The position numbers and the translations under genes are program-made. 64,000 nucleotides of DNA from an uncultured Candidatus Saccharibacteria bacterium. Lineage in GTDB: Bacteria; Patescibacteriota; Minisyncoccia; Phycocordibacterales; UBA1006. Location: contig CAZROP010000001.1 in NCBI GenBank assembly GCA_964601935.1, positions 185,867 through 249,866 on the forward strand, given 5' to 3'. Every line of letters begins with the position of its first letter. Position 1 is the stretch's first letter. This document shows, in pieces, positions 10,952 to 58,079 of the stretch. The notes under the pieces were generated by a model. It worked only from the letters and a program-made list of their open reading frames with translations, was not told the origin of the DNA and ran no database searches.

Positions 10952-11026
10952 TGGGTGACCACAGGGAATCGAACCCTGATCAGAGGTACCACAAACCTCT
11001 GTGTTAACCGTTACACCATGGCCACC
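10952..11026 (-). tRNA. tRNA-His (anticodon GUG) with encoded G-1
   Basis: minus-strand cloverleaf: G-1 plus GTGGCCA acceptor, anticodon loop TTGTGGT, T-arm CAGGGTTCGATTCCCTG, discriminator C. Confidence 0.8.
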
Positions 11027-49064: not shown

Positions 49065-50576
49065 TTAGGAGACACGGTGTTTTTGTCGTAACAGGGCTAT
49101 TTCTTCTGCCTCGCGAATTTCGCGCTCTCGTTTCCCTGCTTCACCGAGGTTTTTCAGTTCGCTGTCGGATAGATTTTGTAGTTCCGTCACACGTGTACCC
49201 AGATATTCACGTGTATTACGAGTATCGTCATCCAAGACCTCTTCTAGGAGCGTGTTCAGTATCCATCCCAGACGTGGCCCTGGGTTCACATGAAACTCGT
49301 TCATCAGATCGTTGCCGTTCAGCGCCAGCATGGTGACCGACAGTGGACTGCGCAGTGCCTCCTCTATCATTGCCTCATATTTACGTAGTCGATAGGGTTC
49401 TGCGTCCTTTTTGCCCATTCCTATGCGATCGCTGCGCCGTACACGCATGAGATCCCATATCAAATCCTCACCTACGTTGACTATCATACGGCGTACGGCA
49501 GATAGTGTGATAGTTTCTGTATCCGAAAAGAACATATGATATCGGACAAGCTTCTCTACTTTGTCCGATAGATCTCGAGGATATTTCATGCGCTCCATTA
49601 TTTTGCGTACCATTTTGGCGCCAATAACCTCGTGTCCATAAAATGTCCATATTCCAGCCTGTTCATCGCGTCTACGGCTGCGTGGTTTTCCTATATCGTG
49701 GAATAGCGCAGCCAGGCACACGTGCAGCGGCCATTCCTGCCATACCGCATTCTGACAGGCATTCAAATTATGAGTAAATACATCATAGATATGGCTTCGG
49801 GATTGCTCGCAACCATGGCCTTCTAGCAATTCAGGGAGAATAATGGCGAGCAATCCAGTTTCATGTGCAACCTCTATCCCCTTTTTGGGCTCCGCAGACA
49901 TAACCATTTTGGTGAATTCATCACGAATACGTTCTATAGAGACGGTCTTTGTTTCGTCCATGAGTTGTTTCATAGCGTATGCGGTCTCTGGTTCAATGGT
50001 AAATCCGAGCTGGGCTGAAAATCGTATCGCTCGCATAATTCGTAATGGGTCTTCTGAAAAACGCTCAAACGGACTGCCTATGGTGCGAATAGTCTTGGAT
50101 AATATGTCAGAAACTCCGCCTGTATTGTCGTGTAACAGATGTTTCACTGTGTCATACACTAATGCATTCATCGTAAAGTCTCGCCGAGAGAGATCATCCA
50201 TCAGATTGGTACTAAAAGACACATTATCAGGATGACGTTTATCGCTATACTCTGACTCTGTCCTGTATGGAGTTGCATGAATTTCGCGTAGTCCGGACGA
50301 CTGTTCGTTATCAGGGAATATAAAAGACACAGTACCAAAGGGGTTTTCGTATACGACACGAATACTAGAAGATTCTGCTACAGCTATCATCTGATCGGGT
50401 GTGGCAGAGGTGGTGATATCCCAGTCGTGAGGATCACGATTCATCAGCAGGTCGCGCACGCAGCCACCAACGAGAAATGCCTCGTGTCCATTAGATTGTA
50501 GTAATTCTATAACACGTGCTGGTTCTGTAGGGATATCGAATTGAATTGCAACCGAATTGGTATCAGGAGTAGTCAT
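49065..50576 (-). CDS. cca: CCA-adding tRNA nucleotidyltransferase with HD domain
   Basis: 503 aa; Pol-beta NTase head GGCVRDLLM...DWD; HD motif LFHDIGKP. Confidence 0.8.
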   Translation of the reverse strand: MTTPDTNSVAIQFDIPTEPARVIELLQSNGHEAFLVGGCVRDLLMNRDPHDWDITTSATPDQMIAVAESSSIRVVYENPFGTVSFIFPDNEQSSGLREIHATPYRTESEYSDKRHPDNVSFSTNLMDDLSRRDFTMNALVYDTVKHLLHDNTGGVSDILSKTIRTIGSPFERFSEDPLRIMRAIRFSAQLGFTIEPETAYAMKQLMDETKTVSIERIRDEFTKMVMSAEPKKGIEVAHETGLLAIILPELLEGHGCEQSRSHIYDVFTHNLNACQNAVWQEWPLHVCLAALFHDIGKPRSRRRDEQAGIWTFYGHEVIGAKMVRKIMERMKYPRDLSDKVEKLVRYHMFFSDTETITLSAVRRMIVNVGEDLIWDLMRVRRSDRIGMGKKDAEPYRLRKYEAMIEEALRSPLSVTMLALNGNDLMNEFHVNPGPRLGWILNTLLEEVLDDDTRNTREYLGTRVTELQNLSDSELKNLGEAGKREREIREAEEIALLRQKHRVS

Positions 50577-56568: not shown

Positions 56569-56639
56569 GCGGTCATAGTTTATTGGTAAAACACGTCCTT
56601 GCCAAGGATGAGAGCGGAGTTCGATTCTCCGTGGCCGCA
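56569..56639 (+). tRNA. tRNA-Gly (anticodon GCC)
   Basis: acceptor GCGGTCA/TGGCCGC, D-arm GTTTATTGGTAAAAC, anticodon loop TTGCCAA, T-arm CGGAGTTCGATTCTCCG. Confidence 0.8.
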
Positions 56640-56650
56640 CAAATAACAAG

Positions 56651-56682
56651 AAAAAACGCGACCTCAGAAGCGTTTTTTCTTG
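56651..56682 (+). terminator. intrinsic terminator after tRNA-Gly
   Basis: aaaaacgc-gacctcagaa-gcgttttt followed by a T-run. Confidence 0.55.
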
Positions 56683-56801
56683 TATATTTTGCGGAAACCA
56701 CCACGGAGAATTGAACCGGGGTCGCGAAATACTCTGCGAATATGGGCGTAAGCGAATACCGAGTATAGATATTTTGTTGGCCGCACACTGGTTCTGTTCC
56801 C

Positions 56802-56820
56802 TCCCCTCGCAAAGGGGAGA
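56802..56820. repeat. palindromic hairpin TCCCCTCGCAAAGGGGAGA flanking the DUF559 gene on the left
   Basis: the same stem (CCCCT/AGGGG) reappears at 57253..57273. Confidence 0.45.
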
Positions 56821-56876
56821 GTTAGGGTGGGGTTTGATTACTCACGAGCATTATATTAGAGTAGCAAGTATATTGT

Positions 56877-57302
56877 ATGGCTATTTTTACGAAACAGAAC
56901 TCTGCCTATTTGGAAAAACGCAGGCACTTGCGAATCAATATGACTCCAGAAGAGCGTACACTTTGGTACTATCTAAAGCATCAGCAAACAGGATATAAAT
57001 GGCGCAGGCAATACAGTGTTGATAATTATATTGTTGACTTTGCTTGTATACAGCAACGTCTAATTATAGAGATTGACGGCGGGGATCATTTGATGAAGCA
57101 AGAATACGATGCAGTCCGCCAAGAGTATATTCAATCTTTAGGGTGGTGTGTACTCAGGTTTGGAAACAATGAAGTGCGAGAACAACTAGAAAGTGTTGTT
57201 AGTAGGATATACGAGTTATTGTATCAACTGTACGACCAAACCCCACCTCAATCCTCCCCTTTGCTAGGGGAGGAACCCCGAACACCGAAACCAGAAATAT
57301 AG
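56877..57302 (+). CDS. DUF559 (Vsr-like) endonuclease domain protein
   Basis: 141 aa; the DUF559 signature MTPEERTLWYYLK....YKWRRQY.V..YIVDFAC....LIIEIDGG.H......YD..R...L...GW.VLRF.NNEV. Confidence 0.7.
   Translation: MAIFTKQNSAYLEKRRHLRINMTPEERTLWYYLKHQQTGYKWRRQYSVDNYIVDFACIQQRLIIEIDGGDHLMKQEYDAVRQEYIQSLGWCVLRFGNNEVREQLESVVSRIYELLYQLYDQTPPQSSPLLGEEPRTPKPEI
57253..57273. repeat. palindromic hairpin CCTCCCCTTTGCTAGGGGAGG, right flank inside the 3' end of the DUF559 ORF
   Basis: 19/20 match to the reverse complement of the left hairpin. Confidence 0.45.
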
Positions 57303-57944: not shown

Positions 57945-58079
57945 AATCCTACCAATTGCAACACCTTGTGAGCTTTATTGTAAGCTCACAAGGTGTTTTG
58001 TCTACATTGTTCCAATGGTATCTAGTGCCACGTGAAACGGAGGGATAGTGAGGAGGGTTCGGGTAGGGTGAATGGGTAA

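Follow-up and report, generated by a model that had tools for sequence, protein, structure and literature searches.

Introduction

BoxC, a repeat of Escherichia coli, is the intrastrand-triplex motif known as TMECO, for which the consensus CCCTCNCCC N3-6 GGGNGAGGG N3 GGGNGAGGG has been given (Holder et al. 2015, PMC4666352). TMECO copies number 23 in strain MG1655 and 3610 in 262 proteobacterial genomes (PMC4666352), and the same repeat has been described, under the names HPG1 and HPG2, as a G-quadruplex-hairpin-duplex switch (Kaplan et al. 2016, PMC5100583). Both papers left the function and the origin of the repeat open, and neither links it to DUF559 or to ycjD; the word "endonuclease" does not occur in PMC4666352, and PMC5100583 names ycjD solely as a neighboring gene. 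Here, we report that a gene of the DUF559 (YcjD-type) nuclease family in an uncultured Candidatus Saccharibacteria bacterium is framed by an inverted pair of BoxC/TMECO-type repeats, and that DUF559 genes of many other bacteria are framed in the same way. The stretch of DNA analyzed, 64,000 nucleotides (nt) in length (contig CAZROP010000001.1 of assembly GCA_964601935.1, forward-strand positions 185,867 to 249,866), is referred to as the window, and coordinates are positions within it unless stated otherwise. We consider it an even proposition that a DUF559 gene nested in an inverted BoxC/TMECO pair constitutes one conserved module of ~480 bp, the nuclease of which acts on the repeats.

On the protein side, DUF559 is included in the Vsr-like PD-(D/E)XK fold family (PMC3424549), and one DUF559 protein, VsrA of Caulobacter, damages DNA (PMC12907096). 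Vsr itself, as a point of difference, is not reported as repeat-framed, and the short stand-alone YcjD subfamily is without established function. The I-Bth0305I-like (EDxHD) homing endonucleases have a related fold and are grouped with DUF559 (PMC3424549), but they are found in phage genes, within group I introns or inteins, and have no framing inverted repeats; phage homologs of our window protein that are annotated as homing endonucleases show 32-36% similarity to it. With respect to the combination of an enzyme gene and a repeat, two reports describe RAYTs as single-copy, vertically inherited genes whose products act on REPINs (10.1101/2022.05.22.493013; PMC3337134).

A DUF559 gene nested in an inverted repeat

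The module and its parts are located as follows.

56796-57276, plus strand: whole module of 481 bp, consisting of left arm, DUF559 gene and right arm
56796-56836, plus strand: left arm, a BoxC/TMECO-type repeat with its G tail directed at the gene
56877-57302, plus strand: open reading frame (ORF) for a DUF559 (YcjD-family, Vsr-like PD-(D/E)XK) nuclease of 141 amino acids, with the domain at residues 14-115
57237-57276, minus strand: right arm, the same repeat inverted, with its hairpin at 57252-57274 and a C-rich tail at 57240-57248

The near-identical hairpins that a first-pass annotation of this stretch, made from the letters alone, had drawn on either side of the gene are both present. However, they are not independent elements but the arms of one inverted repeat of 37-41 nt, which includes a G-rich tail and the right arm of which falls within the 3' end of the called ORF. 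This inverted repeat connects 56800-56836 with 57237-57273 (37-nt arms, 86% complementary) and, if one gap is allowed, extends to 56796 and 57276 (41 nt), its alignment score of 50 comparing to a shuffle maximum of 29. The 20-nt hairpin sequence CCTCCCCTCGCAAAGGGGAG is found at 56800-56819 and, with one mismatch, on the minus strand at 57254-57273, and nowhere else in the 64 kb (0 expected). On its own, the right-arm hairpin folds at -9.9 kcal/mol (z = -4.6), and in a single-strand fold of the whole module, the two arms join into a panhandle of ~40 bp (z = -5.45). No Rfam family matched over the arms.

Both arms follow the same plan. A C-rich stem and a G-rich stem are joined by a 5-nt loop, and a second loop of ~3-5 nt, with TTA or ATT in it, leads to a G-tract, such that the C-rich/G-rich hairpin is followed by a TTA-GGGTGGGG tail. 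The left arm, which reads CCCTCCCCT-CGCAA-AGGGGAG-AGTTA-GGGTGGGG, consists of a C-rich stem (56801-56807), the loop CGCAA, a G-rich stem (56813-56819), the second loop AGTTA and the tail GGGTGGGG (56825-56832). It was a literature search with the G-tract sequence that identified this architecture as that of the E. coli BoxC repeat, which likewise has a C-rich stem of ~9 nt, a 3-6-nt loop, a complementary G-rich stem, a second loop of 3 nt and a second G-rich block; the TTA in the second loop of our left arm takes the position of that 3-nt loop. Both window arms pass a scan for this architecture (C-rich stem, 3-6-nt loop, G-rich stem, 3-nt loop, second G-rich block), but they depart from the strict consensus at several positions per block (CCCTCCCCT...AGGGGAGAG-TTA-GGGTGGGGT); most non-enterobacterial arms are divergent variants as well. 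The E. coli repeats, too, are intergenic and also occur as inverted pairs, and at three further DUF559 loci (L023, L025 and L052) the arms are nearly identical to the E. coli 36-mer and comprise one copy of type A and one of type B, like the E. coli pairs. The window module is an ordinary member of a widespread module, with a divergent variant of the repeat.

An intergenic G-rich tract at 58032-58077 (GGAGGGATAGTGAGGAGGGTTCGGGTAGGGTGAATGGG) resembles the G-tail of the repeat and may be a decayed solo copy or unrelated; a candidate third repeat copy at 58050-58069 has no hairpin and was treated as a degenerate G-tract. Repeat copies in the 64-kb window, accordingly, amount to the two arms and this one degenerate tract.

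The encoded protein is a clear DUF559 member by sequence, and the placement of a DUF559 (Vsr-like) ORF after the tRNA-Gly gene in the first-pass annotation was borne out. The match to Pfam family PF04480 (E = 5.5e-35) aligns residues 14-115 to profile positions 6-108 of 109, the match to the NCBIfam model for YcjD (PRK09767; E = 5e-26) remains under the equivalog cut-off, and the protein also matches PDB entry 3hrl (E = 1e-22). All 16 invariant family residues are kept, namely the putative catalytic residues D54 (the D in YIVDF), E65, D67 and H71 (E-x-D-G-x-x-H) and 12 other invariant columns; judging from these residues and from the PDB match, the protein is likely to be active as a nuclease. 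A search with PADLOC gave no match that would place it in a defense system, and none of the ORFs examined beside the gene was noted as a cytosine methylase partner.

The last ~20 codons of the ORF are read-through of the right arm, which the ORF overlaps with its 3' end; in the closest homolog, the ORF stops ahead of the arm. A similar situation is seen in databases, where DUF559 proteins of 160-190 amino acids owe their surplus length to N-terminal "PSPLAGEGGP.GRV.G" or C-terminal "P..SPARGEG" tails. An alignment of seven such proteins (P0049, P0052, P0062, P0070, P0003, P0012 and P0028) showed that these tails translate the flanking repeats, and they are probably artefacts of gene calling. 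For annotation, this means that the N- or C-terminal tails of many DUF559 proteins in the databases are spurious, being repeats that were translated.

Inverted repeats frame DUF559 genes across bacterial phyla

The combination of gene and repeat is widespread across bacterial phyla. Eighty DUF559 loci were fetched from GTDB species genomes, covering Gamma-, Beta- and Alphaproteobacteria, Desulfobacterota, Chloroflexota, Cyanobacteria/Melainabacteria, several Patescibacteria, Bacteroidota, Elusimicrobiota, Dadabacteria and Bdellovibrionota, and for each locus the upstream flank was aligned to the reverse complement of the downstream flank. In 61 of 81 loci, the resulting score was over 6 units above the maximum from 20 shuffles. 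With windows of the same size, taken from the same loci at a shift of 1.7 or 2.4 kb, as an empirical null, a score of at least 36 was reached by 52 of 77 real genes versus 1 of 284 displaced controls. Nearly all inverted pairs have the hairpin-plus-G-tract architecture, and the density of the motif is 39-fold higher within ~200 nt of the gene ends (3.59 per kb) than at distances over 500 nt (0.093 per kb). The commonest geometry, found in 43 of 82 loci if mixed cases are included, has one motif on each side with the G-tails toward the gene; a few loci are tail-out, and 17 loci lacked a motif in the strict scan. A canonical pair was also carried by four of seven DUF559 genes in metagenome contigs that had been selected independently, and the two arms of one pair are more alike (0.78) than arms across loci (0.68). 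Finally, "DUF559 domain-containing protein" was reported to be 14-fold enriched among predicted targets of programmed inversion (Milman et al. 2023, PMC9881135), as is expected if inverted repeats overlap these genes.

The association might in principle be passive, with BoxC-type repeats inserting or persisting near DUF559 genes through, for example, a preference for local sequence or structure. Orthologous loci do vary in repeat number (L020 has an extra copy relative to L034), insertions or deletions are located right at the arm ends when L023 and L025 are compared, and repeat loci were described as unstable (Holder et al., PMC4666352). Nevertheless, passive association would account neither for the 39-fold enrichment together with a preferred inverted, tail-in geometry that recurs across many phyla, nor for the observation that the arms accompany the gene into unrelated contexts, and we regard it as extremely improbable.

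Several loci show other arrangements. In L214 (2863-3473), a doublet of two subtypes is present on each side of the gene without a change of orientation, as (-X)(+Y) gene (-X)(+Y), while the Rouxiella locus L046 (3955-4338) contains five tandem copies of the repeat at a spacing of 87-88 nt, and the SAR202 (Chloroflexota) locus L059 (3370-3625) has repeat arrays downstream of the gene. In L206 (2964-3378), from a metagenome lineage, the module is wedged without spare bases between a radical-SAM gene and a gene for a MutY-like glycosylase; the arms border directly on start codons, the left arm on the ATG of the DUF559 gene and the right arm on that of the mutY-like gene.

Such compactness touches on a different explanation, in which the arms serve as cis-acting control or insulation of a potentially toxic nuclease gene and the protein does not act on the repeats at all. 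The arms might be terminators on both sides, or they might form a panhandle between the 5' and 3' ends of the mRNA, limiting translation or attracting RNase III. The ~40-bp panhandle of the single-strand fold fits this explanation, as does the position of the arms in L206, at the start codon and at the next gene, and a Caulobacter DUF559 protein was found to induce SOS when its partner methylase is absent (PMC12907096). However, pairing alone would not require conservation of C3TCNC3 / G3NGAG3-N3-G3NGAG3 across phyla, and control in cis leaves unexplained both the dispersal of the motif at many gene-less sites and the fact that, in non-syntenic copies, the boundaries coincide with the arm ends (see below). 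We therefore consider it quite unlikely.

Most repeats lie far from DUF559 genes

The association is one-directional: the genes have repeats, but most repeats are located far from a DUF559 gene. A scan of metagenomes with the window-type hairpin CCTCCCCTNGNAAAGGGGAG yielded 125 copies on 120 contigs. Only 3 copies were within 250 nt of a DUF559 domain, and many copies came as doublets or as variants to which a GC hairpin is added. Within the DUF559 loci, repeats located over 500 nt from the gene do resemble the gene-side repeats of the same locus, with a best identity of 0.85 versus 0.72 across loci.

Module boundaries and probable transfer

The boundaries of the module are the outer ends of the repeats, and the module is found in different lineages among unrelated neighbors. 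In two non-syntenic pairs of loci (L071/L044 and L077/L069), a DNA similarity of ~78% starts and ends 0-8 nt from the outer arm ends, and no flanking ORF within 3 kb is shared, while syntenic orthologs (two Neisseria loci; L023, L025 and L052) align on through the flanks. Homologous modules measure 400-500 bp. The first-pass annotation had implied that gene and hairpins together are a discrete unit capable of transfer, and this held up, considering the same-type pairs at the sampled loci and their unrelated neighbors.

For the window module, the closest non-self homolog of the protein, P0002 (locus L003), has 65% identity and is encoded on a metagenome contig between a 187-amino-acid hypothetical protein and a SPOUT methyltransferase, where the same arms (GGCCTCCTCCCCTAGAAAAGGGGAGGACTGAGGAGGGGTTTGA and its complement) lie on either side of its gene. 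Apart from DUF559, this contig shares no protein with contig L001 of the window organism. For the neighboring cytidylate kinase gene (cmk), by comparison, the best non-self match among 5.8 billion proteins has 31% identity, and the difference suggests that the module, present as a single copy, was acquired horizontally. The organism itself has no sampled relatives; two other contigs of it are 100% identical to the window. Large ORFs of the window without a Pfam match include those of 402, 365, 1047, 692 and 742 amino acids.

Within species, the module is fixed at one place. Also, when 55 modules were inspected for target-site duplications, the distribution of the best direct repeat was that of mismatched flanks. 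These observations are relevant to the idea of a selfish, homing-type element, in which the nuclease would cut "empty" inverted pairs and repair would copy the gene in, with the arms as homology; to us, this appears unlikely. Vsr-like nucleases do include a true homing family, I-Bth0305I (group 58, PMC3424549; also PMC3239194), the module is discrete and occurs without target-site duplications in unrelated contexts, gene-less tail-in pairs exist in E. coli, and three DUF559-containing repeats are recombination hotspots in L. pneumophila (PMC12308824). Conversely, no polymorphism of occupied versus empty sites was found, the gene is single-copy, stable in position within species and rare on plasmids and phages, the spacers of the E. 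coli pairs do not match the inner flanks of modules, and a length of ~40 nt makes the arms short for recombinational repair. It is equally doubtful, then, that the module is an autonomous parasite, with gene-less pairs being its targets or decayed copies.

ycjD and TMECO repeats in E. coli

Returning to the proposal that YcjD-type nucleases act on the repeats, E. coli offers a comparison among strains. The single DUF559 gene of MG1655, ycjD, is located at 1351407-1351760 on the minus strand of that genome, and TMECO #9 follows 168 nt downstream, on the same strand. We estimate, from 18 repeat loci and a few thousand intergenic regions, that the chance of a repeat adjoining a given gene is ~1%. 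The ycjD stop codon is in the loop of a degenerate repeat hairpin (L085, MG1655 1351040-1351410), and a duplicate of ~70 nt of the ycjD 3' end is present between the stop codon and the full TMECO #9, which suggests repeated rearrangement of this site.

Of 5426 complete genomes, 3378 carry ycjD. The gene fills the fabI-sapF interval in phylogroups A, B1 and C as well as in sequence types ST69 and ST182, with eefRABCD taking that place in other lineages (PMC12817139). TMECO counts of 13-30 were reported for K-12, B, HS, W, SE11, IAI1, 55989, E24377A, O104:H4 and APEC O78, of 10-11 for O157:H7 and O55:H7, of 12-15 for 042 and UMN026, of 6-7 for IAI39 and SMS-3-5, and of only 1-2 for CFT073, UTI89, S88, IHE3034, SE15 and other B2 strains (Holder et al., PMC4666352). 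These counts track the presence of ycjD, a trend that fits a role of ycjD in repeat abundance. For this comparison, we take the strains with 13-30 copies to belong to phylogroups A, B1 and C, and those with 1-2 copies to belong to B2.

The spacers of the gene-less E. coli pairs are conserved among themselves. The possibility that these pairs are derived from modules by internal deletion was rejected, since their spacers have no clear match to the inner flanks. Based on a reading by eye of the E. coli sequences of type "A mm", we speculate that pairing of the C arm with the second G block would create a G.T mismatch, i.e., a substrate of the Vsr type.

The tRNA-Gly gene and an adjacent palindrome

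Three further features lie upstream of the module.

56569-56640, plus strand: tRNA-Gly(GCC) gene (ARAGORN; Rfam, 63 bits), adjacent to the module
56619-56716, no strand: long imperfect palindrome, with arms at 56619-56659 and 56670-56716 and a 10-nt loop
56778-56787, plus strand: 10-nt direct repeat of the tRNA 3' end, TGGCCGCACA, the other copy of which is at 56632-56641

The first-pass annotation had noted an inverted fragment of the tRNA-Gly 3' end that did not form a full tRNA. Such a fragment, an inverted copy of T-arm and acceptor (GTTCAATTCTCCGTGG), is indeed present on the minus strand at 56701-56716, 61 nt 3' of the tRNA-Gly gene, and is identical to GTTCRATTCTCCGTGG at 15 of 16 positions. 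With up to two mismatches allowed, the degenerate pattern GTTCRATTCTCCGTGG has three matches in the window versus 0.03 expected: the tRNA-Gly site, the inverted copy and a two-mismatch match within tRNA-His (10959-10974). We ruled out a full pseudo-tRNA on the minus strand: neither ARAGORN nor Rfam gave a match at the inverted copy, and when the first 50 nt of the tRNA were aligned with what lies beyond that copy, the score was 10 (shuffle mean, 14.4). What had not been recognized is that the fragment is longer, extending past the acceptor end and discriminator into the 21-nt trailer, and that it is the outer end of a separate palindrome with arms of ~47 nt. The left arm of this palindrome consists of the 3' 22 nt of the tRNA plus the 21-nt trailer, and the right arm is the inverted copy with a 6-nt insert; 41 of 48 alignment columns are identical, and the DNA folds at -37.8 kcal/mol (z = -10.5). 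The region 56615-56719 mirrors half of the T-arm, the acceptor and the trailer and would, if present in a transcript, compete with folding of the tRNA T-arm and acceptor. As a side note, the tRNA-Gly gene has no encoded CCA, and a gene for the CCA-adding enzyme is located at 49065-50576.

The direct repeat TGGCCGCACA corresponds to the last 8 nt of the tRNA plus 2 nt and has exactly two copies in the window (0.07 expected). It encloses 136 nt, the second copy ends 8 nt before the left arm, and no copy beyond 56787 was found in the 7 kb up to the window end or in the 3.3 kb past it. An old integration or deletion at the tRNA could have left the direct repeat as its scar. An independent assembly of the same strain (L001, Logan SRR13208889_368798) ends at window position 56786, exactly at the direct repeat by the palindrome, suggesting that this region is hard to assemble.

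These features bear on the interpretation favored in the first-pass annotation, an islet at the tRNA-Gly 3' end that comprises the DUF559 gene and downstream genes for membrane or secreted hypotheticals, with the inverted fragment as the integration scar. Extra copies of the tRNA 3' end are indeed nearby, one inverted (56701-56716) and one direct (56778-56787), and downstream ORFs have no Pfam match. Still, the fragment is inverted, unlike the direct repeat that site-specific integration leaves, and the only direct repeat of the tRNA 3' end precedes the DUF559 unit instead of enclosing it, with no copy up to 10 kb downstream. Furthermore, no integrase or recombinase match to Pfam was found among the tested ORFs between 52969 and 63438 or in the precomputed gene matches of L001, and the base composition shows no step. 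As for the downstream genes, most of the tested ORFs lack a Pfam match, but such ORFs are common across the whole window and are no mark of an island. We conclude that integration targeted to this tRNA is not supported and that an islet is highly improbable; we take the window module to be independent of the tRNA-Gly gene and its 3' palindrome.

Discussion

The two partners described here, the repeat family and the protein family, were each known. No published link between DUF559/YcjD and BoxC/TMECO repeats was found, with the caveat that subscription journals were mostly outside the coverage of our search and a prior description is possible. In its organization, the module resembles the RAYT/REPIN system as described in the reports cited above: a single-copy, mostly vertically inherited enzyme gene is framed by an inverted short palindromic repeat, which is also dispersed in the genome, often as inverted doublets. 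These traits (a flanking dispersed repeat, a single copy and a stable position) are found for the DUF559 family, while the window shows the flanking pair only. There are clear differences as well, in that RAYT is a single-strand transposase of the HUH/Y1 type and DUF559 is a PD-(D/E)XK nuclease without known strand transfer, and in that the repeat framing DUF559 genes has a G-tract tail and no GTAG/CGTC tag. The resemblance is thus one of organization, and the functional link is putative. Miniature inverted-repeat transposable elements and other small transposons come to mind, too, considering the terminal inverted repeats of ~40 nt, the small size and the gene-less paired derivatives in some genomes. 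However, the module has no target-site duplication, and no DDE or serine/tyrosine recombinase, and multi-copy identical insertions were not seen.

We propose, at somewhat below even confidence, that BoxC/TMECO-type repeats have their cognate enzymes in the YcjD-type DUF559 nucleases, the functional step being one that we infer from the association. In this proposal, the nuclease would recognize and cut the structured repeat and could act in trans as the enzyme that spreads, homogenizes or maintains the dispersed copies, as a functional analog of RAYT with REP/REPIN on another enzyme fold. Repeat copying would proceed via host recombination or repair and not by cut-and-paste, since a protein that is a nuclease only would have to rely on host pathways for copying; the lack of target-site duplications fits this mode. 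More tentatively, YcjD nucleases may recognize and nick folded or mismatched copies of the repeats, which are known from hundreds of genomes of bacteria, thereby driving their spread, homogenization and local instability, which would make this a second symbiosis of the RAYT/REPIN kind, evolved independently on the Vsr-like fold.

A number of observations weigh against this proposal. Roughly one-fifth of the DUF559 loci have no repeat, and the orientation of the repeats varies, with tail-out pairs, doublets and arrays among the arrangements seen. In E. coli, phylogroups D, E and F, which are mostly without ycjD (inferred at the level of groups from PMC12817139), keep 6-15 copies of the repeat, the correlation between gene and repeat counts represents very few independent evolutionary events, and a comparison of the spacers of the E. 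coli pairs with the inner flanks of DUF559 modules gave no clear match. Recent mobility was not seen when identical proteins in differing contexts were sought for P0041 and P0013; their exact sequences recur on 8 and 12 contigs, respectively, always in the same context. Homologs are also rare on mobile DNA (46 of 72,556 plasmids and 7 of 50,697 phages), and the plasmid and phage matches are mostly chromids or mislabelled chromosomes. In the window, lastly, only the two flanking copies were detected in 64 kb.

Despite these reservations, the association provides a candidate partner both for repeats that have no assigned origin, enzyme or function and for the common DUF559/YcjD family. With its one ycjD gene and 23 mapped repeat sites, E. 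coli K-12 allows the question to be tested directly. The proposed partnership, if true, would explain the genomic instability at BoxC/TMECO repeats and would represent a second, mechanistically different case of a long-lived partnership between a repeat and an enzyme.

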